Part shown: piece by piece, positions 2,530-54,343 of the stretch | Numbering within the stretch: the stretch's first letter is position 1 | Layout of the letters: the number at the start of each line of letters is the position of its first letter | NCBI GenBank assembly: GCA_963841565.1 | Contig: CAWJCY010000006.1 | Coordinates: 192,001 to 256,000 of the forward strand | From: an uncultured Nitrososphaerales archaeon | GTDB lineage: Archaea; Thermoproteota; Nitrososphaeria; Nitrososphaerales; Nitrososphaeraceae | Length of the DNA stretch: 64,000 nt | Reading direction: 5' to 3' | The notes under the pieces: generated by a model | Databases searched by the model: none | Seen by the model: the letters and a program-made list of their open reading frames with translations, nothing else | What the model was told of the DNA's origin: nothing | Position numbers and translations under genes: made by a program

Positions 2530-3914
2530 TCTTCAGATGTCTATGATAAAAGGTCGAAATCGATAATAGATAACTGTTGCTAAAATAATTTATAATCAAT
2601 TTCGATAAAATGTCGAAATAAGTAAGATCACAGGACTAATAGAACAAACCATTATCGGATCAATTGATTCTGAAGTTAATCCTTCACTAACCCAAGCCAT
2701 AATCACAGCAGGACAATCGGTAGGTAACAATTCATTTGCACTTGCAAAATTCGGTGCAGACCAAGGTTGAACCATTCTGCATTGACACTTGAATGGTTGA
2801 CAAGCTAATGATCAATATTCATGCAGTTGGATAGCCATATAATGAAGTATGGTTTAACTGGGTTTACTTCTGCGCTTACAAACGTAAAGGAGGATAAAGA
2901 AAGCACTAATAACAAGTAGACTACAACATCAAATAGATCCATATACTGCTGATCCATAATTCTACGCCAGGCATGTTACTCATCATCCTTCATCCTTTCT
3001 TCAAGAACGTCTATGAAGTTATCTTTGTCCACTACCTTCAAGCAATAATTGCAGATCCACTTCGTAAAAGTATAACGATAGTATTATAGAAATGTGCTTC
3101 GCCATCTCATCTAGCATTCAACTATTATCTCGTAGAAATGTCATTTTTACTCTATTAAACTCATTGGGATATTGATACATCAACCCGTGTCCTGCATTTC
3201 TCATCTGAACAAGCCATGAACTAGGGATCCTCTCTACTAATATTAATGAATTTGTGCAGATGTAAATACATCATCTGTTCCAACTATAAATCAAAGTAGG
3301 GTAGGTAAGTTATGTGATAACTATGAATAAAGTATTCACGTGAATGTGTATGACCAAAATGTGAGGACGGAAAAATATTGGCATACTCTCCTGTCAACGT
3401 TAGTCGGAAAAATTATTCATTCTAGTAGTCAAGCTCTTGAACATGACTAAGGACAAGATGAAGGTAACTATTGATGGTTTGGAATTGTTATATTGCCCTT
3501 AATTTTCCGAAGCTTACTTTATAATACGGTCCTTTATTCGCGCCGATGAGCTTAGTGATCGACAATCTGGGTTTGTTTATCACCCTTTTTTTGTACGAAT
3601 TCCAACATGGAGCCATTTCCCATTCTAAACTTAATGCTTCGTATTTTTCACTATCTTGAAGGCCGACTAGGATCGCTGGCTCTTAAGTATTCAAGAAAAG
3701 CTATCTTCTAATTTATTCCGGTACGTTATAGTATGCTTTTGCTATAACTCTACAGCTATTTACTCTAGATATCTGTGCGAGGATGTCTCTGCAGTGCTAT
3801 ATCGGTTCAGGCAATGGACAATTATTTTTTCTAAAAATAAATCTAACTATCCCTCCCCCATGGCAACACACCTTACTCATTATAAGGTCTTATATAGCGG
3901 TCACTCCATCCAGA

Positions 3915-9000: not shown

Positions 9001-9224
9001 TTACAAAACAATAACGATTATTATTTGATCTAATAGGTTAAGCTGTTGCGATTCATGGGTTGGGATCATATCCAAAAGTGTTATTGATTTAGGGGTTTCT
9101 AATTTTGTCTACTTTGTGTCTTTAGAAATTCCCAAAAGCTACACCTGCCGTGCATGATAAATCAACTCTACCCTCAGAATAAATTTATTAGGATGTAACA
9201 CGATCTAAGAAGACTCCTGACCCT

Positions 9225-11850: not shown

Positions 11851-12487
11851 TCATAGGAGTTATCATACCGTAGGTACGCTTTAAAACATTTTCATTCATG
11901 TTCATTTATTGGGAATGGTCAATTTAATGGTCCGGAACAGCCATACATAGAGGGGATCTGATTCAGGCGACTTTTATTGCAAACTTAACTTATGCATACG
12001 GAATGAAAGTGTTTTCCATGCAAATGCATTAGAACTGTTCCTCTACTCTCTCTATGGGGTTATTTTGAGCTCAATATGAGAAATTGTTAATCGTCATTCT
12101 TAGACGTTTCTAAACTAGTTACCACTTCATCATAAATCTCATCCTTGATTATCACTATCTAGAAAAGTAACATGCTAAAATAGTTCAATTGGATTTTTAA
12201 AGAATCTAAAATTAAATATTAATGTTTTAAATCAAAAAAGCAGACTTAGAAGACCATTTTTGGATGGATTATCAAATTTCAAATTTAACAATAGAAGATA
12301 ATACGAAGTTTAATTTGGTCGGATTGACCAGTTTAAGATTGGAAGAATACCTGTAAAGATTGCTTTCAATGAAAGCCTTACATTAATTCATGGAAAATAA
12401 TTATCAAATCATTCGGATCCTGCAACACATTGGTTGTCTTTCAATTCCCAATTATTAGTTTAAATAAAGGTTACCACTGATAATTAG

Positions 12488-15115
12488 GTGACACTAATTC
12501 GAGAGATTGCAAGAAAATGGCTCGCTGAACCACTTGAGAATTTGAAGGTAGATAAGGTTGAAGAATCTGATGGTCGTAGTCAGGAGTTTGATACTCATCC
12601 TCATGCTAATCATCCAACCAAACCAGATTATGAGAATAGGCGAATTAGAATTGGTATAGATGTGGGTGGTACGTTTACAAAAGCAGTAGCAATAGATATG
12701 TCTACAGGAAGTATCATAGGGAAATCTACCCTACCTACTACTCACAAATCAAATCAAGGTGTTGCAACAGGCATCTTACAAGCGCTATCAGATGTTATGA
12801 TTAGGTTTGAGATACAAAATTCTGAAGTGGAACTCATATCTCATAGTACCACTCAGGCCGTAAATGCCTTGCTTGAAGGTGATACAGCTAAGGTTGGAAT
12901 CATAGGGATGGGAGTTAGCTTAGAGAAGTCCAACATCATTAAACGCACACACATTAAAGATATCACACTAGATGGTAACGGAAAAAAATATATCAAGACC
13001 TGTTATAGGTACTTGGATACTTCTGCATATCTAGGCGAAGAAAGGGTGAGGTCTTTAATCCTCGAACTTGTACGCGAAGGAGCCAAAGTCCTTGTGATCA
13101 GTGAAGCATATGGTGTAGATGACCCTAGTAACGAAGATTTCGTCGAGAATGTCGCAAGGTCCAATATTATGGGAAGTGATGGCAAAAAAGTTCCCGTAAT
13201 TGCAGCTCATGATCTAACAGGAATTTATGGTCTAGAGATCCGGACTATGACTGCCGTGATTAATGCAAGTATTCTGCCGAAGGCCGCTAGTACTGCAAAG
13301 TTCGTTGAATATGCCGTAAGAGAGAAGCTTGGAATCTCCAAAAATACATCAATAAAGATAATGAAAGGCGACGGAGGGCTTACAGATATCGATGCATTTG
13401 AGACAAAACCCATAATAACTGTTCTATCAGGACCTGCAGCTAGTGTTGCGGGGGCTCTTCTTCACTTGAGGGTATTAAATGGAGTTTTTGTAGAGGTCGG
13501 CGGAACTTCGACAAATGTGTGCGTAATAAAGGACGGTAAGCCTAAAGTGAACTACGCTACCATAGTTCAATATCCTACGTGTATTCGCTCATTGGATGTA
13601 AGAGTTGTGAATGTCGCAGGAGGCTCTATCGTCATGTTATCAAAAGACAAGCGAAAAATATTAGACGTGGGTCCTAGGTCTGCGCATATAGCTGGTTTGA
13701 AGTATTCCTGTTTCGCTGAGCCTTACGAGCTCCAGGAAGGAACGATTATACGATTTAAACCTGAGATTGAGGATGACTCGCCTCTCAAACACACAACCAA
13801 TGTACATGAATCCAATATCAATGGCGAAGAACAAAGCATGATCTATGCCGTAATTAAAGGAAGAGGTCTAACTAATGGGTTAGGAAAAGAGAAGAGCTCA
13901 AGAGAAAGACTATTTGCCATAACGACCACATGTGCAGCCAATGCGCTTGGTTTGATTTCTGACGACGATTATGCCAAAGGCAATTCCGAATCTGCAAAGA
14001 TTGCCCTGTCAATTCTCGCCCGAGAAATAGGTACTTCGACTGAAAATGCTGCCAAACAAATACTTGAAATCGCGAGTGACAAGATTTTACATGTCATGGG
14101 TCCTATGTTAAAGGAATATGCTCTAACATATAACAAACCAAGAGGATTCCTACTGAATAGAAAGGAAAATAATGATCGTTCTGGAAATGATGGAAGAAAT
14201 CGAATTAATAATAGCTTTGTCTTAGTGGGAGGAGGTGGAGGTGCTTCGGTCCTGGTGCCTCACCTAGCCAAGACACTTAATATGAATTATAAGAAAGCAG
14301 AACACGCTGAAGTCATATCATCAATTGGTGTAGCCGCTGCCATGATTCACGAAGAACTTGAAAGAACAGTTGATATGAATCCCAACCCAGAAGTGGTTTC
14401 CCTCTTGATGGATGAAGTCAAGGACCTAGCCTTGGCTAAAGGCGCACTACCTGAATCCATCACTATACAATCAGAATATGTCAGCGATCGATCTGTCTTA
14501 CGAGTCACTGCAACTGGCAACATGAGCTTAGACATAGGTACAGCCAATTCTAGGGAAATTAGCAACCATGAAGCTGAAGACATCGCCAAGAATCTTTTCG
14601 GAACAGCTTCGAGCCCGGATTCAGGAGATCCAGGTGATGGCATACAAGAGGTAGATCGTAATGTGACCGTCAAGCGTATTGATTTCAACGTGAAGAACTA
14701 TCACATATTTGAATGTGAAAAAAAAGTCAAGAACCTATTTGGATTTATCCCGCGTTCACAGAAAAAGCAAATTTCAATATTGATTCTCGATAAATTTGGT
14801 AGAGTGAGACTTTCCTTAACAGGCGTAAACATCATCAAGGGCACCAAACAAGATGTCTTGACTGATCTGCTTACACTACTTGGGAGTCCTCTTGATCCGT
14901 TAGAAGGAAACGATAGTAATAAAAAGGTTAAGTTCCAGCATAGCAGAAATACGGATGACAAGCACTGGGATCTTCCACCACAGGTACATCTGTTAGATGA
15001 TATTCGGCTAATAGATTTTTCGAATCTCACATCTTCAGAAAATCTCTCTAAAGTCATTAGGGATGAAGTTCAAAAATCATCTTCTAAAGACATTCTTGCT
15101 GTAATCAAAAAGTAA
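12488..15115 (+). CDS. hydantoinase A / 5-oxoprolinase-family ATP-dependent protein
   Basis: IGIDVGGTFTKAV, SHSTTQAVNALLEG, LSGPAASVAGA and EVGGTSTNV motifs. Confidence 0.88.
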   Translation: MTLIREIARKWLAEPLENLKVDKVEESDGRSQEFDTHPHANHPTKPDYENRRIRIGIDVGGTFTKAVAIDMSTGSIIGKSTLPTTHKSNQGVATGILQALSDVMIRFEIQNSEVELISHSTTQAVNALLEGDTAKVGIIGMGVSLEKSNIIKRTHIKDITLDGNGKKYIKTCYRYLDTSAYLGEERVRSLILELVREGAKVLVISEAYGVDDPSNEDFVENVARSNIMGSDGKKVPVIAAHDLTGIYGLEIRTMTAVINASILPKAASTAKFVEYAVREKLGISKNTSIKIMKGDGGLTDIDAFETKPIITVLSGPAASVAGALLHLRVLNGVFVEVGGTSTNVCVIKDGKPKVNYATIVQYPTCIRSLDVRVVNVAGGSIVMLSKDKRKILDVGPRSAHIAGLKYSCFAEPYELQEGTIIRFKPEIEDDSPLKHTTNVHESNINGEEQSMIYAVIKGRGLTNGLGKEKSSRERLFAITTTCAANALGLISDDDYAKGNSESAKIALSILAREIGTSTENAAKQILEIASDKILHVMGPMLKEYALTYNKPRGFLLNRKENNDRSGNDGRNRINNSFVLVGGGGGASVLVPHLAKTLNMNYKKAEHAEVISSIGVAAAMIHEELERTVDMNPNPEVVSLLMDEVKDLALAKGALPESITIQSEYVSDRSVLRVTATGNMSLDIGTANSREISNHEAEDIAKNLFGTASSPDSGDPGDGIQEVDRNVTVKRIDFNVKNYHIFECEKKVKNLFGFIPRSQKKQISILILDKFGRVRLSLTGVNIIKGTKQDVLTDLLTLLGSPLDPLEGNDSNKKVKFQHSRNTDDKHWDLPPQVHLLDDIRLIDFSNLTSSENLSKVIRDEVQKSSSKDILAVIKK

Positions 15116-15272: not shown

Positions 15273-15930
15273 TCATTGGGACAAATTTGGAACGATCCGG
15301 TAAATATTTCCGTGGATGTGTGATAGCAAATAAAGATAACCATCTGGCCCTTCTTTAATATCTGCAATAACCCCGAAGCCTTGCCCTAATACCACGTTTT
15401 CAAGCTCCTCATTGTCGTTTGCAACTTTATCTGCAAGATCTCCTTCAAGATCTAACTTCGTTCTGTCATCGCCTAATTCAAAAATATATAGATAGTCATT
15501 ATTATAATCGGCAACGAACAGATCATTTTGATACTCTTCTCCCCAGAGTATCACCTCTAAGGAATTCTAAAGCGGTTACGCCAATAGACATATTCCAAGC
15601 AAATTCAGGACTTCTATATCTTCCTTTATCGGCGAAAGTTTCTAAATTGGCTGGTATCGTTACCATATTGTCATCAAAATATCCTCTAGCGGCTGGTAAT
15701 GGGTTTGACGTAGTAACTGGCCACCATCCTTGTACTCTTAACCATCCACTATTGAATCCAGGTTCTACAAGGTTAATTTCGTCACCATACCCAGCGCCAT
15801 TTTCACTATCCCACAACTTATTAGTAACCGGATCGAATGCAAGTCCAAATCCATTTCTTATGCCAAATGCATAGTATTTATTCAGAAGACTATGATCAGC
15901 TAGAACTCCGGTAGTACCATTCTCTCCTCC
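15273..15930 (-). pseudogene. PQQ-dependent sugar dehydrogenase (GSDH) C-terminal remnant
   Basis: YYAFGIRNGFGLAFDPVTNKLWDSENG..GDEINLVEPGFNSGW, continuing after a frameshift near 15543 into EEYQNDLFVADYNN...DIKEGPDGYLY; N-terminal half missing. Confidence 0.8.
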
Positions 15931-16414
15931 CAGTACTGGTTCACCGATTCTTTGAGTAATTGATATCACAATTCCGAAATAACATTTACAGAACAAATTG
16001 CAAGTAGCGATGGTGCGTAATATGTAGTTACGCACTAAATCCATTGTGAATTCGCGGATAAACATTTGATAATGTTTGAAGTATTTGACAAGCGGATTAG
16101 GTACAATGTGATGTGTTCTAATCATGACTACAGATTGGTCACTAGTGATTTCGAAACTTCATAAACGGATTGAGTACCCCTGATCTCTACCGCGTTTCCC
16201 CACGAATAGCATACGGCATATCCGTTTGGTTAAATGACACAACTTACAAAGCTCCTTTCAGTGCCTTTAATCGTGGATGTCGTATCACTCTAAAAAAGAA
16301 AGTATTTGAATGGATCGATTGCATAATATTAGATAGATCTAGAGAAAAATCGAATGCAAGCTAGAATTTTATGGTTCATTAATCGTTGGTAATGTTGAAT
16401 CCATACGGATAGCA

Positions 16415-16450
16415 TTTAAATATTAGGCTACACTAATTAGGTTAGTCTAA
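16415..16450 (+). promoter_or_regulatory. TATA box TTTAAATA plus two tandem DtxR-type boxes (TTAGGCTACACTAA, TTAGGTTAGTCTAA)
   Basis: Two abutting 14-bp palindromes directly after the TATA box, 6 nt before ATG 16457. Confidence 0.8.
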
Positions 16451-16456
16451 TCTAAA

Positions 16457-16771
16457 ATGAGCCTTTCGAGCGATTACGAAGAAAATAATTCATTATTGTT
16501 GTTGAGAGAGGTTGCAGAAATGATTACTTATAAAATAATTACATCAACCATGTACTCAGCAAAGACGGTACTCCAGATATCAACTGAGAATAAGATACCA
16601 TTGAGTTCAACTTACAAAAAGATAAGTAGATTATGCAAAGCGGGGATTTTGTCAGTAGAAAGAGCTTCGATAGACGATAATGGAAAGAAGGTTCTTTATT
16701 ACAAAAGTAAAATAAAAGCGATCGAGGCATGTCTAAATGAGAATGGACTTGCGGTTCACGTAAAGAAATAA
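16457..16771 (+). CDS. winged-helix (ArsR-like) transcriptional regulator
   Basis: SAKTVLQISTENKIPLSSTYKKISRL...GKKVLYYKS helix-turn-helix and wing pattern. Confidence 0.85.
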   Translation: MSLSSDYEENNSLLLLREVAEMITYKIITSTMYSAKTVLQISTENKIPLSSTYKKISRLCKAGILSVERASIDDNGKKVLYYKSKIKAIEACLNENGLAVHVKK

Positions 16772-17188
16772 AAGTTCTCAAGATTTAATAGCCAAACATC
16801 ATTTCAGCAATGTATCAAGAGAATGCCGAAAGGGAGTCTGAATGTGAATTGAAATTGATGACAATATAGGCTAGCTTAAAACAATTCATATGGATTGATT
16901 TGACTATTATTGAGAATCCGCACTATATTCATTATAGTTAATTGGCCACTCCAAGCTTTGTTACTGATAATGTTTTTGATTTACTTTGTTGTAACGCATT
17001 GTTTTTCTTAATTTGTCAGATGCCAGAATCCAACTTTAGTGCCGATTCAATACTACTTTCATCTAAAGTGGATACGAAGTAGTACTAAACCAGATTTTAT
17101 GATTTGCATTTAGTTTATATGAAATTAATTATTCTAACAAAATGATACTGTACAACAATAGCAAAGAAACCCCATTGCCACCGAGTAA

Positions 17189-17208
17189 ATTTCTCATTAT
17201 TGAGAAAT
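17189..17208. promoter_or_regulatory. palindrome ATTTCTCA-TTAT-TGAGAAAT upstream of TATA (17218-17225)
   Basis: Perfect 8-bp arms; related ATTCTC-N6-GAGAAT at 18212-18229. Confidence 0.4.
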
Positions 17209-17250
17209 AGCTATTAATTTAAATAACAACTGTCAAGGTAATTTATTGTC

Positions 17251-17709
17251 ATGAATAGACAAATATTGAACATGAAATCCATGTTCGTTATCTATATGTG
17301 TCTCTTAGCTGCTATATCTCTACCTGTGAGCTCTATGGCAAGTAATTCTGCATTCGCTCAAGGTACGACTGAAAGTGATGCAGCTGCAGGTGAAGAAGCA
17401 CAGAGTACTAGCGATCCATTAGAACTTATCTCTACAATACAGAGCTTGCTGAATCAAGCAGTAGTAGAATATGGTAACCAGAACTTCACTGGTGCAGCAG
17501 AATTAGCACAAATTGCATATCTGGATAATTATGAGTATTTAGAGGCTCCATTGGGTCAACTAGATCCCGCGTTGATGGAAGCAACTGAAATAATGATCAG
17601 GGAAGATATGCAAAATTCAATAGAATCAAGAGTACCTCTTAGCGAATTGCAACAATTGGTCAATACCATTGATGGTAATTTAATTACAGCACAACAACTG
17701 TTCGGTTGA
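17251..17709 (+). CDS. secreted helical protein homologous to the FTR1 ectodomain repeat
   Basis: Signal peptide ending SAFAQ; AYLDNYEYLEAPL...LMEATEIMIRE matches AYLDNFEYLEAPI...LMLDIETEMRE in 22421..24832. Confidence 0.85.
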   Translation: MNRQILNMKSMFVIYMCLLAAISLPVSSMASNSAFAQGTTESDAAAGEEAQSTSDPLELISTIQSLLNQAVVEYGNQNFTGAAELAQIAYLDNYEYLEAPLGQLDPALMEATEIMIREDMQNSIESRVPLSELQQLVNTIDGNLITAQQLFG

Positions 17710-18022
17710 CGAAACACAACCTCTTTTTATTACCTTATTTTATTATGCTTTGCCTATTTCACGTAAAGGTTAGCATTTTCCTATCAGAACCTTCAAAGTA
17801 AATGATTGTAAAGCGTCATAGGTTATAAAGCGTCTGTAGACTCAATAACACTCGAGGCAAGCTTAGAAATAGAAATTATTTTGGTGAGAGCCCTCATTTT
17901 ACCAATGGTTAGTTTGAAAACATATAGCTTTTGTATTATGACAAGGATGATAGCTAGGACTCGCGGATACCCGCTATGTCAGATATTAAGTGGTTAGTTT
18001 GTCATGACAACATGGTTAGAAA

Positions 18023-18069
18023 TCCTACTCGATTAGATTTTGATCAACCGTCAATCCAATCGAGTAGGA
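18023..18069. other. 17-bp inverted repeat / strong hairpin
   Basis: TCCTACTCGATTAGATT-N13-AATCCAATCGAGTAGGA. One mismatch, which is a G-U pair only in the minus-strand transcript. A T-run follows on the plus strand. Confidence 0.8.
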
Positions 18070-18165
18070 GGTGTTTTTTTCTGACCTGGCGCGAGTAGTG
18101 ATTTTCTATCGGAATTTCCATAGATGCCAATCCCAGACATTCCAATAGTTCATTTGTTCAGTGTA

Positions 18166-18201
18166 TTAGTTAATCCTAATTAGGTAAGACTAATATTTAT
18201 G
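18166..18201 (-). promoter_or_regulatory. TATA-like CATAAATA plus two tandem DtxR-type boxes
   Basis: Plus strand: TTAGTTAATCCTAA (18166-18179), TTAGGTAAGACTAA (18180-18193), TATTTATG; same layout as 16415-16450 and 22303-22338. Confidence 0.78.
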
Positions 18202-18645
18202 CTTGCTTTTGATTCTCATTGAGGAGAATTTTCACAATACTTATCGCTAACATAAAGACATATGTTTTTGTTTATTTCATTAATTTAGTCAGATTACGGG
18301 GTAAAAGTGGACACATATCAGTACTACGGTTCATGAGCTATAAGATACGTATTACTGTCAATTATTGCTTTCCATGTTCCTCATACATATGTTCTTTCAA
18401 CAAGTCTTCAGATCGACATCTAGTTTTGCATTCGGAACAAACGAAAAACTTGTGATCATTAATCGTGTCGCCATCCTTGCTGGCGTGTGTTTTGGTCAAG
18501 GTCGTTCGTGATATGTGCACATCGGGCTTTATATAGGTATAAAATGCATTAAAAAGGTTATTTCAAGATGAAAATTGAAAAGAACGCTCAATGATAAATA
18601 TTTGATAGTACTCACTCAAGATAAAATTTAATTCTGGGCTGAAAA

Positions 18646-19119
18646 CTATACTGGGCAGCATTTACCTGGTGGTATTGGATGTCCATGAGGACATCGCATT
18701 GGATGATTCAGTAAGGTGCACAAAGCATCTGTAAAGACTTCCTTCATATGATGCTCAATACCACACACCATTTCTTCATCGATCGCGATTCTCAAACTAT
18801 CTCTCATAAGTATTTCGAGAAGACGGGTATTTCGTATCATATGTCTTGCTATCTGCTCACCCTTCGCAGTAATCCTAATTGAAATATTTTCCTTACTGTA
18901 TTCCACAAAGTTCTCATCATTAAGTTTATGTAACATGCTCACAACTGAAGGCTGTCTAATGTTAAGTAATTTAGCAATAGAACTTACCTTCACCTCTTTG
19001 CCTCTCTCTCCTATATGCCAAATTGCCTTAAGATACATTTCCAGGCTCTCTGAACGAGCTGTCCCGATATATAGCTCTTCATCGACAGATTTCTTCGACT
19101 GACTACTATTATTATTCAA
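18646..19119 (-). CDS. DtxR/IdeR/MntR-family metal-dependent regulator (short form, no FeoA domain)
   Basis: EMYLKAIW, IAKLLNIRQPSVVSMLHKL helix-turn-helix, RNTRLLE, CGIEHH and CPHGHPIP. Confidence 0.95.
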   Translation of the reverse strand: MNNNSSQSKKSVDEELYIGTARSESLEMYLKAIWHIGERGKEVKVSSIAKLLNIRQPSVVSMLHKLNDENFVEYSKENISIRITAKGEQIARHMIRNTRLLEILMRDSLRIAIDEEMVCGIEHHMKEVFTDALCTLLNHPMRCPHGHPIPPGKCCPV

Positions 19120-19739
19120 TATGGTGTATAATTGTAAGTACTACAATGTTTTAGTTATTTAGCATATAGTCGTTTCTCACAGACGAAAACATGAGTCTAG
19201 TAACAAGGGTTATCTATGCAGTCCATCAAGTAAAGACTCTTGTTTAAGAGTTTCGATCCATTTATCCTTGATCGAAGTATGACTCAGATTTATTCTGTTA
19301 GTGTGGAAGATTTAGCAAAAATACTAAGACCTTTCTCTTCGGTTCTCAGATCTTAGAATCTAATATAAGTATATTATCCATCGTCAATCCCTCACTCTAT
19401 GGATAACCCATTATCATGTTCAAAGCTATTCGTGTTATCTCAGATTCAATTTCATTTTTAAATTCATGCGTTAATGACGCTAGAGTATAATTTTGGACTG
19501 AAAGTCCAAAGTAGGTCATCGAAAGCAATATCAATACCAATACAGATGTTAAAATATTATAATTTATTCGAAATTTATTGAAACAATTTGACATGATTTT
19601 AGATCGAATTGGATGTTAAATTTAAATATACATATAGGTTTTCTAGCCGTATAACATGACAAAATTATTCATTTCTTTTGTCTCTATTGAGAATCAAACG
19701 GGAGTATATATATATAATATTTTATAACATAATCGGCCA

Positions 19740-20993
19740 TTGAGGGATCAACGAGCAGCTGAGATATTCCAATCTCACCAGGAAAGTCGGTCATTTTACG
19801 CCGAAGAGAAACCTTCAACTTTCTTATCAATTGTTATACCTACCTATAATGAAAGCGAAAATATCATCAGACTTGTTAGAGAAATTGCTAGCAGGATCCC
19901 CAAAGATATTAGGACGGAGATTTTGATAGTTGATGATAAATCTCCCGACGGAACTGGCTCTCTAATTGATAAGTTTGTAGCAGAGAATAATTTCGATGGA
20001 ATTCGTAACGAAAGTCAAATACTGACCATCAACGTACTTCATAGAGAGACACGTGACGGCCTGATGTGTGCAGTGCTTGATGGTATCAAAGCTTCCAATG
20101 GCAAGAACATACTAGTAATGGATGCTGATTTCTCTCATCCTCCTCAACTTATACCTCGGATAATAAAGGAACTCAAGCACGAATCTAATTGTGTCGTGAT
20201 AGGGTCGAGATATGCAAAGGGGGGTTCTATTGTAGGTGTACCGTTGAAGAGACTCTTAATAAGTTTTGGTGCTACAGGAATTGCAAGATACGGCCTCAAC
20301 GTAAAAGAAGTTCGAGACCCAATGTCTGGATTTTTTGCATTGCCACGTCATGTTATAAAAGATATCGAATTTAGTACTCAAGGATTCAAGATTTTGCTTG
20401 AAATACTAGTCAAGAAACAAAGACACATTACCGTAAAAGAGATTCCATACACTTTTACTGTCAGAAAATATGGACATAGTAAATTGGATCGAAAGGTCTT
20501 GGTAGACTATACGAAGGCGGTTTGGAGTCTGTACAAGTACGGGAGAAGATCACAAAAAAGGCTGGAAAGTTCAGAGCACAGAAGATCAGTATTGTTCTTA
20601 TCGAAGGCCGCTAGGTTCTTCACCGTAGGAGCTAGTGGGTTAGCAATCAATTTCCTGGTATCTTTTTTACTCTCTAATGGAACCTTAGCTAATCTTTGGT
20701 ATGTTCAAGCGACTGCAATGGGAATAGCTGTTTCAATAACCACTAACTTCCTCTTGAACAAGATTTGGACATTTGAGGACAAAAAGTTCTCTGTCCTTTA
20801 TGCTTTGAAGCAATACGGTTTATTTCTATTTTTCAGCTCATTAGGTATCTCGATACAGCTTTCATTAGTCTATTTGATGGTAGAATCTGGAATACCTTAT
20901 AATCTATCACTTATTTGCGCAGTAGCCGCGGCTTCAATTAGTAATTTTGTCCTTAACAAGAAGTGGACTTTTAGAGAGAAAGTGTGGGGCTGA
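19740..20993 (+). CDS. dolichol-phosphate mannosyltransferase-like GT2 fused to a GtrA flippase-like domain
   Basis: VIPTYNESENI, VDDKSPDGT, VMDADFSHPP and DPMSGFF; C-terminal 4-TM GtrA domain (NFLLNKIWTF). Confidence 0.92.
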   Translation: MRDQRAAEIFQSHQESRSFYAEEKPSTFLSIVIPTYNESENIIRLVREIASRIPKDIRTEILIVDDKSPDGTGSLIDKFVAENNFDGIRNESQILTINVLHRETRDGLMCAVLDGIKASNGKNILVMDADFSHPPQLIPRIIKELKHESNCVVIGSRYAKGGSIVGVPLKRLLISFGATGIARYGLNVKEVRDPMSGFFALPRHVIKDIEFSTQGFKILLEILVKKQRHITVKEIPYTFTVRKYGHSKLDRKVLVDYTKAVWSLYKYGRRSQKRLESSEHRRSVLFLSKAARFFTVGASGLAINFLVSFLLSNGTLANLWYVQATAMGIAVSITTNFLLNKIWTFEDKKFSVLYALKQYGLFLFFSSLGISIQLSLVYLMVESGIPYNLSLICAVAAASISNFVLNKKWTFREKVWG

Positions 20994-21104
20994 ATCTGTC
21001 CCTAAAAGATTGTTTAGGATCTGATTGAAGCCTCTTGGTTACTTTCCTATTTAGTCTATTTACTAAAATAAAAGAAAAAAAGGGTTCAAAAATATTGGAG
21101 TTAT

Positions 21105-21590
21105 TTAGCGGATTTCCAGCTTCGCGAGTATGTCTTCGATAGTCTGTTCGTCTTCCAATTCTGCATCAAGCAGATCTAGTGCTAGATGGTAGGTACCGTG
21201 ATCTTTGTCCTTAACGTTATTGGCAAGGTCATTATATAACTTGATTACGCTTCTTTCAAATTCCAGTGCTTTTTCCAAAGCACTGCGAAGTGTCAAGTAC
21301 CTTGAAGGTTGTAGCTTACCCAAGCCGCTTTCTTGTTCCCATAAAGCAGGGTCATCTTTGGCATTAGTTCCAAGTTGCATCAGCCTAATAGAGACTTTTT
21401 TAGCATGCCCCAGTTCTTCATCTGCTCGCTCTTCGAAAAACTTTTGTTCTAGCACACCTAGTCCTTCTATATTCTGAGAAATGTACCAGAAATAATGGAA
21501 TGCTGACAATTCTCCAGCATAAGCGGTTTTCAGCATCTCTATCGTACCTTCGACTCCAGAACCAGCAATTTCTTTTCCCATTTTGCCCAT
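21105..21590 (-). CDS. ferritin-like protein (bacterioferritin/DPSL-like)
   Basis: Four-helix bundle with E...EELGH...E ligand pattern (YAGELSA, ADEELGHA, ALEFERS). Confidence 0.85.
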   Translation of the reverse strand: MGKMGKEIAGSGVEGTIEMLKTAYAGELSAFHYFWYISQNIEGLGVLEQKFFEERADEELGHAKKVSIRLMQLGTNAKDDPALWEQESGLGKLQPSRYLTLRSALEKALEFERSVIKLYNDLANNVKDKDHGTYHLALDLLDAELEDEQTIEDILAKLEIR

Positions 21591-21642
21591 ATTATATTCG
21601 ATATCTATATGGATAACCTCCTATTTAATAATTTTCAACAAT

Positions 21643-21656
21643 TTAGTACGAACTAA
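21643..21656. promoter_or_regulatory. single DtxR-type box TTAGTACGAACTAA upstream of the BRE/TATA of the ferritin-like gene
   Basis: TTAG-N6-CTAA; minus-strand TATA (TATTAAATAG) at 21621-21630. Confidence 0.6.
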
Positions 21657-21847
21657 TTAGAAAGAGTATGTAGAATTGTAGAAATTATAAGATAATTCCA
21701 CACAATACAGTAATTATTGATTGCATCCTACGTTACAAGTGTCATTTAAATAAACTTATTTTTGTAAATACATATCATGTCTATGTAGAGCGTTAGTAAT
21801 CTCAGAAATAAATAATCTCTAACAATGAATCATTTAAGATACAAAAT

Positions 21848-22108
21848 TTAGCTCTGCTTCGGTGATATATCTTTTTCCTTCTTCCTATGTGGAGGTTCTA
21901 ACCCAATGGTTCCCATTATTGAATCTCCTATTGGTTCAAAAATAGTCCGAAGTGATTCGGTATCATAGTATTTTATCACCTCGTTCAACTTGCTCTCGAT
22001 CTTTCTCTGTTCGATTTTCAAAAGCATATATCGGGATATTAACGCCTTCACTTCATCTGCCTTGTCTTCCTCAATTGGGTTCTTATCCGAAGAGCTTGGC
22101 GGGGACAT
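21848..22108 (-). CDS. hypothetical 86-aa protein with a coiled-coil segment
   Basis: ORF 6 nt downstream of 22115..22300; probably the same operon. Confidence 0.6.
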   Translation of the reverse strand: MSPPSSSDKNPIEEDKADEVKALISRYMLLKIEQRKIESKLNEVIKYYDTESLRTIFEPIGDSIMGTIGLEPPHRKKEKDISPKQS

Positions 22109-22114
22109 TCTTTA

Positions 22115-22300
22115 TCAAGGGGCGTCTTTTAAGACTACTACATTACCATATGTAAGTTGGACCTCATTCATGCCATAGGTAAGCTGTTCTAGAGGGTCCA
22201 AAATCCCATCGGTATTATCACATACGTAAGTCGTTAGATCTCTGTCTTCAATTTTTTCATTCTTATTGACATTTTCAAGAAAATTGTGGGCCTCTTCCAT
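22115..22300 (-). CDS. hypothetical acidic 61-aa protein
   Basis: ATG 2 nt after the tandem-box promoter; internal QLTYG duplication. Confidence 0.55.
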   Translation of the reverse strand: MEEAHNFLENVNKNEKIEDRDLTTYVCDNTDGILDPLEQLTYGMNEVQLTYGNVVVLKDAP

Positions 22301-22302
22301 TG

Positions 22303-22338
22303 TTAGACTTTCCTAATTAGGATATCCTAATATTTAAA
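22303..22338 (-). promoter_or_regulatory. TATA box TTTAAATA plus two tandem DtxR-type boxes
   Basis: Plus strand: TTAGACTTTCCTAA (22303-22316), TTAGGATATCCTAA (22317-22330, perfect palindrome), TATTTAAA. Confidence 0.82.
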
Positions 22339-22403
22339 CAGTATCATTTTTCTTCTATGACTTGACTGATGACTAATGAGAGAAATCTATTTATTTGTGA
22401 TTC

Positions 22404-22417
22404 TTAGGTTAGCCTAA
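22404..22417 (+). promoter_or_regulatory. DtxR-type box TTAGGTTAGCCTAA before ftr1
   Basis: Matches the core of the DtxR/IdeR consensus; 3 nt before ATG 22421. Confidence 0.82.
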
Positions 22418-22420
22418 TGG

Positions 22421-24832
22421 ATGAGTCTCAGTGGATGCTTAGCGAAATCGTATTTTTTGGCGTTTTTGACTCTTGCGACTTGTAATTTGATTATTTCTCC
22501 GTTGATTATTGATGATGGAACCGCACAACAATTAGCCCAAAACCAACAATCAACGGATCCACTTATAGTCTTCATCAATCTAGAAAGGATTGGAACTCAG
22601 CTTAACCTTACACAATACAGTTTGAATAGTGGTGACCTTGAATCTGCGTTTCAGCATGCCTATATACCTCATTCGGTTACCTTTCCAGTAATTAAACCCA
22701 TACTGAGCGAAGATGACCCAGCTTCTTCAAAAAGTCTCGAGGGTCTACTTACCGATCTTCCGATTAAGGTCCGTGCGTCAAACAGTCCAGAAGAGGCATA
22801 TTCCAATATTGAATCTGATGTTGCAACAATTAAAAGCCTACTGAACAAAATCGCGAACTCAACGGCTGGACTAAGCTCCCTTGAAGATAAGGGATTTGTC
22901 CTGCAGGCATCGGCTGTGCTTCTGGAAGACGCGATTCAATCATATAAAATAACTAACGCTTCATCTACTCAGGATTCCTCGAGCACATTTAATCTTCAGA
23001 ATTCGTTAGGGTTAGTAAACAGTTCACTTACAGATTTTGAAAGAGTAGCAGACTCCGTGGATGAGCGGAGACGAGAAGAAATTAGATCCTTCTATAATCA
23101 GATACAAGAAAGCATGAAAAATGATGCACCATTTGATACCGTTGCAAGTGTTGCTTCCGCAATTGAACGAGACTTTACAGAGGAACTAACTTTAAGTGGC
23201 GGCAGTGAAAGCGCATTAGAACAGGCAAAATACTTTTCTACTATTAGGGATCTACTTAACAGCACTATTACATCGGTGAATGATGGAGATTATAAAGGTG
23301 CAGATGCGACTGCAATCAAAGCATATCTAGATAACTTTGAATATCTTGAGGCACCTATCGAAAAACATGATTCTGATTTGATGTTAGACATCGAGACAGA
23401 GATGAGAGAAGAACTTCGTCAGATGATAAGGGAGGAACGTTCTCCACAAGAGATTAACGGTTTTATCACATCGATCTTAGGCAAATTGGATCAGGCTGAA
23501 GATTTGCTGAAAAACGATCCTGAATATCGTTCGAACTTGAATACAAATACAACAGCTAGCGGAGCTTCACTTGCTAATATCCAAGGATTGCGGCAAGGAT
23601 TCGGTACCTATACTGGAGAAATTCGGCAGATGGGAGAGGCAGATGATCCAGCAAAGGAATCTGTAAGAAACAACATAGACCAGATAAGATTGAAACTAAG
23701 TGAGATGCTTAGACTCTATGAGAATAAGAATTATGAAGGTTCACTTTTAGCCGCGCGATCCGCTTATTTAGATAGTTATGAGATCGTTGAAATTCCGTTA
23801 AGACCAATTGACCCTGATTTCACCCTTGAGATGGAGATTAGATTTGCTGAATTAAGAAACCTGCTTCAGCAGCAGGTACCACTACAGGAAGTCGAAGCAA
23901 AGACCATAGAAATTAGAAGAGGATTAGACGAATCAGAGAGGCTTGTGTCTGGTGTGGGAGTTGTGGCACCTGCAATTGCGTTCTCGACTTCCTTTTCAAT
24001 TATATTCAGAGAAGGTCTTGAATCAGCCTTAATAATAGGCGCCATTCTCACATATCTGCAAGCATCAAGAAATACTCGCTTCAAAAAGCATGTATACTAC
24101 GGGATTCTAATTGCAGTTGTTGCTACAGCTGCAACTTGGTTTGTGGCACAATATATAATTGAAATTTCTGGGGCGAACAGGGAACTGATAGAGGCTGTGG
24201 CTGGCCTATCGGCGGTAGCAGTTCTTTTCTGGGTGAGCTTCTGGGTACTAAACAAGATCGAAACTAAGAAATGGATCGAATTTGTTAAAGCAAAGGTCTG
24301 GAAGGCCACTACTACGGGTAGTGTAATTGTGTTTGTTGCTCTGGCATTTTTCACAGTCTATAGAGAAGGTTTTGAGACGGTCTTGTTCTACCAAGCTATG
24401 CTATCCTTCGCAAAGTACATGGAGCTGTACGTTATTGCGGGCATGTTCTTAGGACTAGCGGTGATTATTGGGGTAGCTATTTTAATCAATAGACTTGGCA
24501 GAAGATTACCCCTAAGGGTACTCTTTGCTTTAACCATGGGAATAGGAGCTTACATGTCGATAGCTTTCATGGGCAATGCGGTTAGAGAATTGCAAGAATT
24601 AGGAATAGTGTCTACTACTCCATTGGTCGGCGTAGTTCCAAGGTTGGATATTAACCTAGCAACCATGACAGGCATCCATCCCACACTAGAATCGATAATT
24701 GCTCAAGTTGTTCTCCTATCCATATACTTGATAGGCTCGCTTTATATACTAGTCCTGAAGCCCCGGAGACAGAAAGCTATCCAAAGTGCAAGAAAATCTA
24801 TGGCAGATCTACAAGAAAAGAAAGAGGGATAA
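22421..24832 (+). CDS. ftr1: FTR1/EfeU-family iron permease with a ~500-aa extracellular helical-repeat N-terminus
   Basis: IFREGLES and VYREGFET REXXE motifs in the TM domain; signal peptide; repeated AYLDx[FY]ExxExP helices. Confidence 0.93.
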   Translation: MSLSGCLAKSYFLAFLTLATCNLIISPLIIDDGTAQQLAQNQQSTDPLIVFINLERIGTQLNLTQYSLNSGDLESAFQHAYIPHSVTFPVIKPILSEDDPASSKSLEGLLTDLPIKVRASNSPEEAYSNIESDVATIKSLLNKIANSTAGLSSLEDKGFVLQASAVLLEDAIQSYKITNASSTQDSSSTFNLQNSLGLVNSSLTDFERVADSVDERRREEIRSFYNQIQESMKNDAPFDTVASVASAIERDFTEELTLSGGSESALEQAKYFSTIRDLLNSTITSVNDGDYKGADATAIKAYLDNFEYLEAPIEKHDSDLMLDIETEMREELRQMIREERSPQEINGFITSILGKLDQAEDLLKNDPEYRSNLNTNTTASGASLANIQGLRQGFGTYTGEIRQMGEADDPAKESVRNNIDQIRLKLSEMLRLYENKNYEGSLLAARSAYLDSYEIVEIPLRPIDPDFTLEMEIRFAELRNLLQQQVPLQEVEAKTIEIRRGLDESERLVSGVGVVAPAIAFSTSFSIIFREGLESALIIGAILTYLQASRNTRFKKHVYYGILIAVVATAATWFVAQYIIEISGANRELIEAVAGLSAVAVLFWVSFWVLNKIETKKWIEFVKAKVWKATTTGSVIVFVALAFFTVYREGFETVLFYQAMLSFAKYMELYVIAGMFLGLAVIIGVAILINRLGRRLPLRVLFALTMGIGAYMSIAFMGNAVRELQELGIVSTTPLVGVVPRLDINLATMTGIHPTLESIIAQVVLLSIYLIGSLYILVLKPRRQKAIQSARKSMADLQEKKEG

Positions 24833-25125
24833 ACTCGTAATAGTCAGACATCAAGGCTTCCCAACTACAGGAAGAGCGAGTCAATTCACTAAATACAACC
24901 TATGGAGATTGCGCCTCAATTTGAGTACGGCAGTAAGTTTAGTTGCTATATATGATAGGAATACCTCATGCAGGGATGCTTTAAATACCAAACCTGTAAA
25001 ATCTTAACCGACCAAAATAAATCGTTTAATACAGTCATAATAGCAAGGTATATCTAGACCTACCACTTGCATCGATCAAAAATGATAAATTTACTTCTGA
25101 TAATTGATTTCATACTACCCTGCGA

Positions 25126-25473
25126 ATGATGAGATCTAAAACTAAGGAGAAAGGAAAGCATGCCCACTCTACACACTATCGGAGATTGGTGTGGGAGAAT
25201 ATAGTGTGGCCTCTCATCATTCAAGTGAATCGTCCTTATTTTACAATTGAAGAATATCAGTATAAAAGGAATGAATTTTGTAAAATTAATAATATCCCTG
25301 TATCCAAGCTATCTGGCGGATTAGTGTCATTGATTATAAAGGATATCCTGAAAAAGGATTATGAGCACAGAACTTGGATTTACTCAATTCATTATAGGCT
25401 CATTCCCTATATGCGCAAAAGAACGAAGCTTGAATATGGTCTAGCAGTTAGGGAATCATCTGGGAAGCGATAA
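25126..25473 (+). CDS. hypothetical basic protein, possible winged helix
   Basis: 115-aa ORF; GGLVSLIIKDIL...YSIHYRL pattern. Confidence 0.65.
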   Translation: MMRSKTKEKGKHAHSTHYRRLVWENIVWPLIIQVNRPYFTIEEYQYKRNEFCKINNIPVSKLSGGLVSLIIKDILKKDYEHRTWIYSIHYRLIPYMRKRTKLEYGLAVRESSGKR

Positions 25474-25997
25474 GCGGGAGATTCGGAAAGAATCGTTATT
25501 GTGTGGTTGCAATTTAATACTATGGACATTAATAAATGCAATGGATTTTCACTTTATTGTAAGTACTTAGCTACTACTTATGAAGTTCTAATTAAATAGG
25601 ACTGTACTGTGGAATAACCGAGAGCATTATCGGATTGTTATTTCATGGCATAAATTAAGATTTATTCAAGAAATGCAATTTGTCGATGTGAAATCTTGAA
25701 TTCCCAAGTCCATCCGCTTTCACATCACAGTTTCATTAGAAAGAAACAAATTCACTTAATGCGATCTCTTTCACCTTCGATCACATGTAGATGCCCAATA
25801 AAATTCGGAGCGGTTCTTGGTTTTGGTTTTGGGGTCCTATTGGTCCCTTATCTTATTCGGTTAACAACTTTGAACATATAGAGTTATGCAAGTACTTAGG
25901 TACTTCTATGAAAATATCGAGCACGTCTTTCAGTAGAATGAGTAGTTGGTGGCCATATCTTTAACTAGGATGCACTCGTATAAAACATGACCAAGAG

Positions 25998-26153
25998 GTG
26001 TACTCCACAGCCGGAACTCCTGAATCTCGACATGGACACAAGAAGATAGTTTGTAGTATTTGTGGGAAGGACTTTGAATCGGAAGAAACATTGAATATCC
26101 ACAAAAAAATGGAACATAACGAATCGAGCCATGCACCAGCCGGTGTAGCATAG
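25998..26153 (+). CDS. 51-aa C2H2 zinc-finger microprotein
   Basis: Manual translation from GTG: VYSTAGTPESRHGHKKIVCSICGKDFESEETLNIHKKMEHNESSHAPAGVA* (C-x2-C-x3-F-x5-L-x2-H-x4-H). Below the ORF-track length cutoff. Confidence 0.8.
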   Translation: MYSTAGTPESRHGHKKIVCSICGKDFESEETLNIHKKMEHNESSHAPAGVA

Positions 26154-54049: not shown

Positions 54050-54343
54050 TTAACCTTCTTCCCAGCCCTTTTCAAATACACCATTCTTGTGAAGAGGAAC
54101 TGGCGCACCTGAAGTGTATTCCATAGGCCTCATCCAGAAAATAGCATGGGTTGGACAGACCCCTATGCATGCTCCGTCTGATATGCATCGTTCAGGGTAA
54201 AAGATAAATGCTTTTCCTCTTTTCCATCCCTCTACCGGCTTTACCCTCAGTACATCTGGACCTAAAGCTGTACAAATCTCTACGCAGAGAGCACAACCAA
54301 TACATCTCTGTTCGTCTACATCTGGAAGTATAGCAATTGGCAT
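54050..54343 (-). CDS. dicluster ferredoxin
   Basis: CIGCALCVEIC and CISDGACIGVCP. Confidence 0.95.
   Translation of the reverse strand: MPIAILPDVDEQRCIGCALCVEICTALGPDVLRVKPVEGWKRGKAFIFYPERCISDGACIGVCPTHAIFWMRPMEYTSGAPVPLHKNGVFEKGWEEG

Follow-up and report, generated by a model that had tools for sequence, protein, structure and literature searches.

A 64-kb stretch of the genome of an uncultured Nitrososphaerales archaeon (assembly G000, contig C6, positions 192001-256000; hereafter the window, with positions counted from its first letter) carries a cluster of TTAG-N6-CTAA palindromes at the promoters of genes for an FTR1-type iron permease, a ferritin-like protein, a small winged helix-turn-helix (wHTH) regulator, a pair of small open reading frames (ORFs) and a unit that has no conserved ORF. 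We conclude that these boxes are very probably DtxR-type iron operators and, with equal confidence, that the last unit encodes a real, box-controlled small RNA (sRNA). The model as a whole, DtxR-family iron-responsive operators of the Nitrososphaeraceae together with an sRNA circuit, strikes us as likely. Its boldest part is that Nitrososphaeraceae have an archaeal counterpart of the bacterial RyhB, namely a DtxR-operated sRNA family, present here in two copies, that would silence 2x[4Fe-4S] ferredoxins at their start codons under iron starvation; this we put forward tentatively, giving it slightly less than an even chance. The identity of the metal and the sign of regulation, whether repression or activation, we infer from promoter geometry and gene content.

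A pattern scan found boxes at each of the eight positions listed in an earlier note on this DNA (16423, 16437, 18166, 18180, 21643, 22303, 22317 and 22404), and a ninth at 16442 that overlaps another. In all there are 13 matches in the window, against 1.59 expected from dinucleotide shuffles (standard deviation 1.24, largest count 5; none of 100 shuffles reached 13), and nine of the 13 fall within 16423-22417, which bears out that note's rough estimate of two chance matches per 64 kb and its claim that the clustering is not random. Base counts over eight window sites refine the site to A-TTAGG-N4-CCTAA-T, a palindrome with the TTAGG and CCTAA half-sites of a DtxR-type operator; the double boxes of the 70 genomes described below likewise mostly read TTAGG-N4-CCTAA. 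The exact 28-bp double box, two boxes in tandem, has five matches in the assembly (2.05 Mb in 13 contigs, 88% complete), two of which are one locus on overlapping contigs C5 and C8, and its reversed control has none. When a weight matrix built from the window sites was run over the genome, the top ranks were all intergenic and one further locus was found, on C8 with a duplicate on C5. These contigs share 13.7 kb of 99.8% identical sequence where C5 ends and C8 begins, and the locus of a second ferredoxin, ferredoxin B, at C10:17795-18088 is identical to C6:110426-110719 over the compared stretch; since both overlaps look like assembly redundancy or co-assembled strains, copy numbers taken from this assembly are upper bounds.

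The placement of the boxes is as regular as their sequence. Three promoters have the layout that the earlier note described, a TATA box followed by two boxes with no spacer and a 14-bp period (16415-50 on the plus strand, 22303-38 and 18166-18201 on the minus strand; Table 1). Archaeal TATA boxes are centred near -26, so an abutting double box would cover about -22 to +6, a position from which a bound protein would keep TFB and RNA polymerase off the promoter. At the first of these promoters the stretch 16437-55 reads TTAGGTTAGTCTAATCTAA and holds two boxes offset by 5 bp, presumably close to the 19-bp DtxR/IdeR consensus. At the FTR1 gene the single box, 22404-17, lies between the TATA-like element and the ATG and spans the expected transcription start, as the note had it; at the ferritin-like gene the box, 21643-56, sits 13 nt upstream of the TATA box at 21622-29, again as described there. 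Archaeal activators sit just upstream of the B recognition element and TATA box, and the ferritin box would thus occupy the position expected of an activator. In geometry, with a box overlapping or downstream of the TATA box at uptake-type genes and upstream of it at the storage gene, the set resembles the regulon of the Haloferax regulator TroR (see below), the regulatory sign being our extrapolation.

We followed these promoters through 121 genomes of the family, in 18 genera, and 201 genomes of the order. The unpublished genomes G035, G077 and G099 are included in the counts so far as the same genome sample was drawn: G035 contributes one row to the RNA alignments and the covariance model and one ferritin-promoter row, and G077 one ferritin row, one FTR1 row (lacking a box) and rows among the DtxR genes; no conclusion rests on any of these three alone. 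The exact double box occurs in 70 of the 121 family genomes and 14 of the 18 genera, with none for the reversed control, and in 70 of the 201 order genomes, spread over five families (22/40, 8/9, 11/11, 22/40 and 6/6), again with none for the control; it was not found in the fifteen other families of the order that were sampled (e.g. 0/40, 0/15, 0/13 and 0/10). Some genomes of the order have three or four boxes in phase. In family f13, small genomes (1.4-1.9 Mb, 99% complete) have three or four boxes in 14-bp phase in which the core GG/CC is scarcer (e.g. G252:C1:787878-787933, G264:C1:513377-513432).

We examined 36 double boxes (from fetched loci and from G000), of which 33 could be oriented by an adjacent TATA box: 20 stand before an ORF of 104-118 aa that starts 0-6 nt past the box, nine before the RNA motif described below, and four before other ORFs. 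The 20 ORFs form one family, 19 homologues matching the window's 104-aa wHTH protein at blastp E values from 2e-37 to 9e-21, and all ten named relatives found with that protein (from metagenome-assembled genomes labelled Nitrososphaeraceae, Nitrososphaerales or Thermoproteota) keep the TATA box, double box and ATG; their labels speak for the taxonomic placement implied in the earlier note. Failure of the motif to recur in orthologous promoters was to count against the earlier note's reading; cross-genome footprinting found it there, beyond the double box itself, at the promoters of both iron uptake and iron storage genes. A box between the TATA-like element and the start codon of FTR1 was present at 20 of 25 loci (g1 8/8, g17 6/6, g14 5/6, g8 1/1, g11 0/3 and g5 0/1, by genus), reading TTAGGT(A/T)AGCCTAA in 19 and TTAGGATAACCTAA in g8; the TATA-proximal box copy of the divergent small-ORF promoter, beside its TATA box, is also visible upstream of the g1 FTR1 loci. 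A box 13-15 nt upstream of the ferritin TATA box was present at 13 of 24 orthologous loci, in three genera (g1 9/10, g11 2/2 and g14 2/4). Family f19, which also belongs to the order, has this TATA box and double box in front of genes for a plain FTR1 permease (Pfam E 2.9e-56) and for FeoB (E 3e-57). In family f9 we also noted a TATA box and double box before a 184-aa protein with TFIIB repeats (L170:1501-2091 in G162; Pfam E 4.5e-20), apparently a truncated TFB-like factor under iron-box control.

Several observations weigh against the operator reading. The earlier note had proposed a genome-wide motif scan, and its outcome is divided: 13 of the 63 matches to the loose TTAG-N6-CTAA pattern do sit in the window, 3% of the genome, but over the whole genome the pattern shows no enrichment (its reversed control matches 74 times), and the signal therefore lies in clustering, promoter placement and tandem form. 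For the window the weight matrix is circular, having been trained on sites from there. The exact double box is absent from 51 of the 121 family genomes. At FTR1, where start codons were guessed, the box was not found at five of the 25 loci (the three of g11, that of g5 and one of g14); at ferritin it is missing from 11 of 24, eight of which have no box at all and three of which, all in g2, have only repeats of a one-mismatch variant, TTAAT-N-TGTACTAA. DtxR-family genes, finally, are near-universal (115 of the 121 family genomes), and their co-occurrence with the boxes cannot discriminate. We nevertheless hold to the DtxR-type iron regulon, because the boxes are conserved and their motif equals that determined for TroR by chromatin immunoprecipitation sequencing (ChIP-seq).

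That the metal is iron is suggested by gene content, namely the FTR1/EfeU permease and ferritin/Dps genes in the window and FTR1 and FeoB in f19. A regulator of the MntR kind, sensing manganese, zinc or another metal, would fit the two-domain build of the DtxR-family protein in the window, the best NCBIfam rows for which are MntR models (all far under their cut-offs) and several of whose PDB relatives are manganese regulators (SloR, ScaR and MntR). The regulated set, however, consists of FTR1/EfeU, FeoB, ferritin/Dps and an sRNA complementary to ferredoxin mRNAs, and the same protein carries Met in LEMYL and Cys-x-x-Glu-His in VCGIEHH (read from the translation without alignment to DtxR), which we take to correspond to the primary-site ligands Met10, Cys102, Glu105 and His106 of DtxR. 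Another metal could moreover be served by a third, distant DtxR-family gene (G000:C11:53647-54219, minus strand, 190 aa), which adjoins genes for a ZIP-like transporter (465 aa) and a multicopper oxidase-like protein and probably governs a separate regulon with its own motif. We regard a non-iron regulon as scarcely probable.

As to which protein binds the boxes, the earlier note had pointed to the DtxR-family gene at 18646-19119. Its product has the N-terminal winged-helix domain PF01325 (E 4.6e-14; 52.8 bits against a cut-off of 26) and the metal-binding and dimerisation domain PF02742 (E 3.4e-20; 72.3 bits against 27), with PDB relatives at E values down to 5e-17, and ends after this second domain, at 157 aa, lacking the C-terminal SH3-like domain of DtxR and IdeR; being two-domain and of this length, it is filed under the DtxR/MntR family and not as a DtxR/IdeR orthologue. 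The assembly has three DtxR-family genes, of which a paralog at G000:C6:354351-354830 is the better conserved: 74-84% identical to the ten other-genus orthologues compared, against 61-73% for the window copy. In the recognition helix the window copy has Ser (QPSVVSML), at what we believe to be the position of DtxR Gln43, a further point to the operator reading's debit; all 12 other intact homologues compared, its own paralog included, have Gln (QPSV(V/I)QML), and the closest orthologue of the window copy (G091) has Asn. Orthologues of the window copy are broken in two genomes of the same genus, by a frameshift near residue 60 and an in-frame stop in G057 (L178, G057:C99:701-1164) and by frameshifts in G098 (L179, G098:C413, about 2827-3118), and beside both broken copies the sRNA and its double box are intact.

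The window copy would be the natural master of all the boxes by its position, standing intact amid the boxed genes, with a recognition helix only one residue from that of the conserved paralog, and other genera have no close copy besides the DtxR gene adjacent to the regulon. Because it is genus-specific, diverges faster, is of the Ser type and is broken in two same-genus genomes, we nonetheless think it unlikely to be the master and regard the conserved Gln-type paralog as the likelier candidate; the role of the window copy may be redundant, or its specificity shifted. The earlier note thus fares unevenly here: its DtxR-family operator reading stands, on the TroR motif match, the conserved promoters and the gene content, and its choice of the gene at 18646-19119 as the obvious regulator does not, this gene being a diverged duplicate.

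The 104-aa wHTH protein deserves the same scrutiny, since its own gene is the one most often behind a double box (the 20 of 33 and ten of ten just given), autoregulation is common among small wHTH factors, and the near-universality of the DtxR family deprives the co-occurrence argument of force; it might then be an autoregulator that also controls its neighbours. We consider this highly unlikely: the site equals the ChIP-seq motif of a DtxR-family factor and also resembles what we take to be the DtxR/IdeR iron box, the double box stands before FTR1 and FeoB in another family of the order, and many genera show synteny of DtxR-family genes with the boxed ones, a DtxR-family gene adjoining FTR1, ferritin, the 104-aa gene or a double box.

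The unit downstream of the double box at 18166-93 was described in the earlier note as an ORF-free transcript of the regulon. It is indeed ORF-free, the ATG of a 15-codon ORF within it being unconserved, and it is more than a further regulon member: it is a conserved, structured RNA with predicted ferredoxin targets. A small peptide encoded by this unit was considered and rejected, because the ATG is absent from same-genus copies and indels of 1-2 nt fall inside the conserved motif. A second copy, with its own TATA box and double box, lies at G000:C8:11426-11657 (= L051:2427-2658; duplicated at C5:42333), and is more divergent, with a 51-nt hairpin loop. Downstream of their double boxes the two share (G)UCUGG-N-(A/G)UUGGCAUCU(A), a CCAGGUC segment, an A-rich stretch ending in CACC(UCC), a strong hairpin and a (U)UUCUAACC tail. 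The UUGGCAUCU motif is invariant in 22 copies, and the pattern of a double box followed after 8-38 nt by UGGCAUCU occurs in 19 of the 121 family genomes, with none for the control. In genera g8, g17 and g18 the sRNA directly precedes the next TATA box and double box, those of the 104-aa gene, with a DtxR gene at most about 1.1 kb further on in g17 and g18; since that next promoter follows at once, the sRNA is an independent unit.

Structure is conserved along with sequence. RNAalifold on 14 copies gave 28 pairs, 10 of them with compensatory changes; in a 24-pair model structure 95.2% of the cells are paired and 10 pairs show changes on both sides, where shuffles give 2.3 (none of 500 reached 10) and slid controls 0-3. 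The hairpin arms vary by genus (CCUACUCGAUU, CCUGCCCGGC, CCUACCAAGC, CCUAUUCGGCUG and others), the 3' arm always matching. The window copy folds at -45.3 kcal/mol (z = -5.6). A covariance model built from the 14 copies matched in 21 of the 121 genomes and nine of the 18 genera; among its ten matches outside the training set, six follow directly on a TATA box and double box (at most one mismatch), one on a single box and three on no box. It is to be held against this model that, biased toward g1, it missed the second copy in G000 and most g14 copies. Rfam has no family for 15500-25500 at E<=1. The unit thus has, in silico, two features of iron-sparing sRNAs such as RyhB, IsaR1 and IsrR: it is non-coding and conserved in sequence and structure, and it lies behind a promoter with an iron-box operator (in 19 of the 121 genomes by pattern).

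Exact complements of the invariant motif fall on two start codons, both of genes for 97-aa 2x[4Fe-4S] ferredoxins, of which one lies in the window (...AG AUG CCA AUU...). We ranked targets by RNAduplex energy, pairing the 50-nt sRNA segment around the motif with positions -40 to +30 of 2,161 called gene starts. Four ferredoxin starts (two paralogs, one assembly duplicate and a third, 178-aa dicluster ferredoxin) ranked 1, 2, 3 and 5 for the C8 copy (best -41.1 kcal/mol) and 3, 4, 8 and 38 for the window copy (best -36.1 kcal/mol); with control segments (one reversed and six shuffled per copy) the best ferredoxin rank was 156 or worse, and the best energy -31.0 to -35.2 kcal/mol. In six genera, each genome's own sRNA was paired with its own two ferredoxin paralogs: the 14 pairings gave z values from -2.7 to -7.3, with 0-4 of 300 shuffled targets reaching the observed energy, and all 14 duplexes span the AUG, from roughly -13 to +25. 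The AGAUGCCAAU segment is kept in five of six ferredoxin-A starts, and adjacent synonymous sites vary.

Against these pairings stand a number of points. For the window copy, two unrelated non-ferredoxin starts outrank the ferredoxins. The ferredoxin matches are not independent, since the genes are paralogs and the genomes kin. The duplex folding disregards intramolecular structure, and in a single-sequence fold the sRNA seed lies inside a 5' hairpin. Gene starts came from a crude longest-ORF caller, and the shuffles of the cross-genus pairings keep mononucleotide content only. In another set-up, a gene for an UppP-like (undecaprenyl-diphosphatase-like) protein at G000:C12:321046-321873 was a high-scoring candidate for pairing with the window sRNA; we rejected it as a conserved target because no homologue was found at E<=1e-20 in five other genera, an empty result that is weak evidence.

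The sRNA might accordingly be real and box-controlled and have some other role, its complementarity to ferredoxin being a by-product (for example of an inverted ferredoxin 5' end), or its function being exerted on other mRNAs through the anti-Shine-Dalgarno-like CACCUCC, or by protein binding. Non-iron genes do score as well as ferredoxin for the window copy, the seed is partly paired in the single-sequence fold, and the segment (A)UCACCUCC just before the hairpin, presumably similar to the 16S rRNA 3' end, is conserved. Yet the most conserved part of the RNA, the UUGGCAUCU motif common to all 22 copies, is the one complementary to ferredoxin; the ferredoxin starts are at the top genome-wide for the second copy where the controls fail; the complementarity recurs in six genera with differing flanking pairings; and exact complements of ACACCUCCUAC hit one gene start among 30 9-mer matches, which speaks against anti-Shine-Dalgarno-like action. 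A role apart from ferredoxin seems to us rather unlikely, and we give ferredoxin targeting, as modelled here, an even chance.

Put together, the mechanism would run as follows. In replete iron, a metal-loaded regulator on the TATA-abutting double boxes would block TFB and RNA polymerase at the wHTH regulator gene, the small-ORF pair and the sRNA gene, and on the single box over the start site would likewise block the gene of the FTR1 permease fusion, while at the ferritin/Dps gene a single box lying 13-15 nt upstream of TATA would act positively, as TroR does at dpsA of Haloferax. The main binding protein would be the Gln-type paralog, with the window copy in a redundant or altered part. Low iron would, with roughly even chances, derepress the sRNA, the UUGGCAUCU and GUCUGG segments of which are predicted to pair with AGAUGCCAA...CCAGA(U/C) over the start and first codons (Met-Pro-Ile...Pro-Asp) of abundant 2x[4Fe-4S] ferredoxin mRNAs. 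Such pairing would block ferredoxin translation, an iron-sparing response analogous to those of the bacterial RyhB, IsaR1 and IsrR.

The protein products of the regulon (Table 1) are familiar to different degrees. The C-terminus of the 803-aa fusion matches the Pfam FTR1 family PF03239 over residues 525-705 (E 2.3e-17) and TIGR00145 (E 1.1e-34, below the equivalog cut-off). Its translation contains REGLE and REGFE; FTR1 proteins are defined by two RExxE motifs, and the protein has the FTR1 membrane domain. The fusion is present in 91 of the 121 family genomes. The ferritin-like four-helix domain of the storage protein is clear (see Table 1), and we do not file the gene as an Arch_DPS equivalog, since it scores 55.9 bits against that NCBIfam model's cut-off of 250. 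For the 104-aa regulator there was no Pfam match and a weak match to the Sta1 family (E 0.0056); its neighbours in the protein atlas are small TrmB/ArsR-like regulators of Nitrososphaerota.

Logan contigs from four soil or rhizosphere RNA libraries (X1, X2, X7 and X8, from four studies), laid on 16300-22700, align, mostly at >=99% identity, with 21094-21583 at the ferritin gene and with 21858-22286 in the small-ORF pair, where they run across from one ORF into the other; DNA carry-over is possible. A 35-nt conserved piece of the DtxR gene is also matched, beyond which the contigs are unlike the window and so come from relatives, and those of X8 also match part of a glycosyltransferase gene. 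The sRNA, FTR1 and the 104-aa gene are left uncovered by these contigs, which tells against the model to the extent that contigs, which cannot show absence, tell anything.

Further features of the window lie around this set. A TATA box and a box that spans the GTG start of a hydantoinase/oxoprolinase-family ORF mark a possible additional regulon member at 12459-12497, and isolated boxes occur at 9089, 12100 and 63785. The repeated motifs AYLDN(F/Y)EY(L/I)EAP in the N-terminal domain of the FTR1 fusion belong to a wider pattern, AYLDN(Y/F)E(Y/F)(L/I)EAPL...(L/M)xxE, common to the N-terminal two thirds of the fusion (22421 to about 23990), a 152-aa protein at 17251-17709 (plus strand) and a 391-aa secreted protein at G000:C8:10073-11248 (minus strand; = L051:1074-2249). 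None of these three has a Pfam or NCBIfam match in this region, which may represent a so far undescribed domain for handling iron outside the cytoplasm. A box lies between the TATA box and the ATG of the 391-aa gene, and a similar 380-aa protein stands behind a double box in family f9. At 15273-16125 (minus strand) two overlapping ORFs of 93 and 200 aa, the longer of which matches only the middle of a glucose/sorbosone dehydrogenase profile, may be a split or frameshifted gene. Besides the C2H2 zinc-finger-like ORF of Table 1, a second one (CxxC...HxxxxH; 51 aa) lies at 25998-26153 on the plus strand.

Table 1. Promoters, genes and RNA of the putative iron regulon, and related features, in window coordinates
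Feature	Position	Strand	Details
Candidate regulon site	TATA 12459-66, box 12484-97	+	TATA TTTAAATA; box spans GTG start of 875-aa hydantoinase/oxoprolinase-family ORF 12488-15115
Promoter of small wHTH regulator	16415..16456	+	TATA TTTAAATA 16415-22; box 16423-36; box 16437-50; overlapping box 16442-55; ATG 16457
104-aa winged-helix regulator ('class-1')	16457..16771	+	Gene most consistently behind the double box
Conserved non-coding sRNA	18014..18165	-	~150 nt; invariant UUGGCAUCU, internal helix, A-rich stretch then CACCUCC, terminal hairpin, UUUCUAACC tail
Promoter of sRNA	18166..18201	-	TATA CATAAATA 18194-18201; box 18180-93; box 18166-79; no conserved ORF downstream
Small C2H2 zinc-finger-like ORF, status uncertain	18362..18520	-	52 aa, between DtxR gene and sRNA promoter; Pfam zf-C2H2 E 0.0008, under curated cut-off
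DtxR/MntR-family two-domain metalloregulator, diverged paralog	18646..19119	-	Recognition helix QPSVVSML; Pfam PF01325 + PF02742
Ferritin-like / archaeal Dps-like iron storage gene	21105..21590	-	Pfam Ferritin PF00210, E 2.2e-18
Ferritin promoter	21622..21656	-	Single box 21643-56 (TTAGTTCGTACTAA), 13 nt upstream of TATA ATTAAATA 21622-29
Two small ORFs behind double box	22115-22300; 21848-22108	-	61 aa and 86 aa; no Pfam or NCBIfam match
Promoter of small-ORF pair	22303..22338	-	TATA TTTAAATA 22331-38; box 22317-30; box 22303-16; ATG 22300
FTR1 promoter	22387..22417	+	TATA-like CTATTTATTT 22387-96; box 22404-17, 7 nt past the TATA-like element and 3 nt before ATG 22421
803-aa FTR1 fusion	22421..24832	+	Long N-terminal extracytoplasmic domain; C-terminal FTR1/EfeU iron permease
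97-aa 2x[4Fe-4S] ferredoxin, predicted sRNA target	54050..54343	-	Start region AGAUGCCAAU...CCAGAUGU complementary to sRNA; Pfam Fer4 families

Ammonia-oxidising archaea have an unusually high iron demand, attributed to ferredoxins, and iron can limit nitrification, according to the accessible parts of two reports (PMC12974425, PMC6776035). When iron limits Nitrosopumilus maritimus SCM1, one abundant ferredoxin (Nmar_1537) declines and its five others do not change; no regulator or small RNA is named for the decrease in the accessible part of the report (PMC12974425). We cite this as physiological context and do not imply orthology of Nmar_1537 to the ferredoxins here. Our literature search found no account of iron sensing and re-allocation in ammonia-oxidising archaea. 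If the present model is true, it offers a candidate mechanism for the ferredoxin down-shift of iron-limited members of this group, the sRNA providing a testable post-transcriptional route. The cis-element can be scanned for in any Nitrososphaerales genome or metatranscriptome and would serve as a readout of the iron regulon, and it ties several unknown proteins to iron: the wHTH regulator, the two small ORFs and the secreted domain shared with the FTR1 fusion. If the sRNA part is also right, archaea would have evolved iron-sparing riboregulation independently, under a repressor of the DtxR type and not of the Fur type.

Among characterised systems, the closest to the operators described here is TroR, the DtxR-family regulator of Haloferax volcanii, for which the accessible part of the report gives the ChIP-seq motif TTTAGGC-NNN-CCTAAA, with repression of uptake genes and of the regulator gene idr and activation of dpsA in replete iron (PMC10783522). 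The core TTAGG-N4-CCTAA motif and the multiple sites per promoter are common to both systems (PMC10783522), as is the target set as far as that source goes: uptake genes and a gene for another transcription factor repressed, and a Dps storage gene activated, each sense being putative on our side. Haloferax belongs to a different phylum, and in the text available its tandem motifs are about 30 bp apart, whereas ours abut with a 14-bp period and are fused to the TATA box; its uptake genes are for siderophores, in contrast to the FTR1 fusion here, and our set includes a box-controlled sRNA.

The boxes also resemble what we take to be the iron boxes of DtxR (C. diphtheriae) and IdeR (M. tuberculosis), palindromes with TTAGG...CCTAA half-sites; the Pfam domains of the regulator are shared, and the 5-bp offset of the boxes at 16437-55 is that of the 19-bp consensus as we know it. 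The protein here differs in having two domains in 157 aa, with no SH3-like third domain, and Ser at the presumed Gln43, and the sites differ in their 14-bp tandem phasing. The promoters are of the archaeal TATA/TFB kind, so that repression would act by blocking assembly of the pre-initiation complex. Our literature search found no description of this iron regulon in ammonia-oxidising archaea; the work of Leyn and Rodionov (J Bacteriol 2015) on archaeal DtxR regulons lay outside that search and might list it. That work reportedly compared DtxR-family regulons across Archaea and found palindromic motifs upstream of metal transporters, with no sRNA, by the same comparative approach and the same kind of inference as ours.

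RyhB, PrrF, FsrA, IsaR1, IsrR and MrsI are iron-sparing bacterial sRNAs which, as the partly available accounts have it, are controlled by iron repressors and silence mRNAs for Fe-S proteins. In the sources available in part, the only archaeal case that our search turned up was that of antisense RNAs in Pyrobaculum; it found no archaeal iron-sparing sRNA circuit. The sRNA described here resembles the bacterial ones in that its gene lies under the operator of an iron repressor and in its predicted pairing over the translation start of Fe-S protein mRNAs, ferredoxin included. It has no relation to them in sequence or structure (no Rfam match), is archaeal, would be controlled by DtxR and not Fur, and has targets that are only predicted. 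As read from sequence comparison, then, the cis-regulatory part is an iron regulon of the DtxR family, one with a logic like that of TroR and a distinctive TATA-fused, 14-bp tandem architecture, in ammonia-oxidising archaea; the new element is the sRNA, of a kind, controlled by an iron repressor, that is already known in bacteria.

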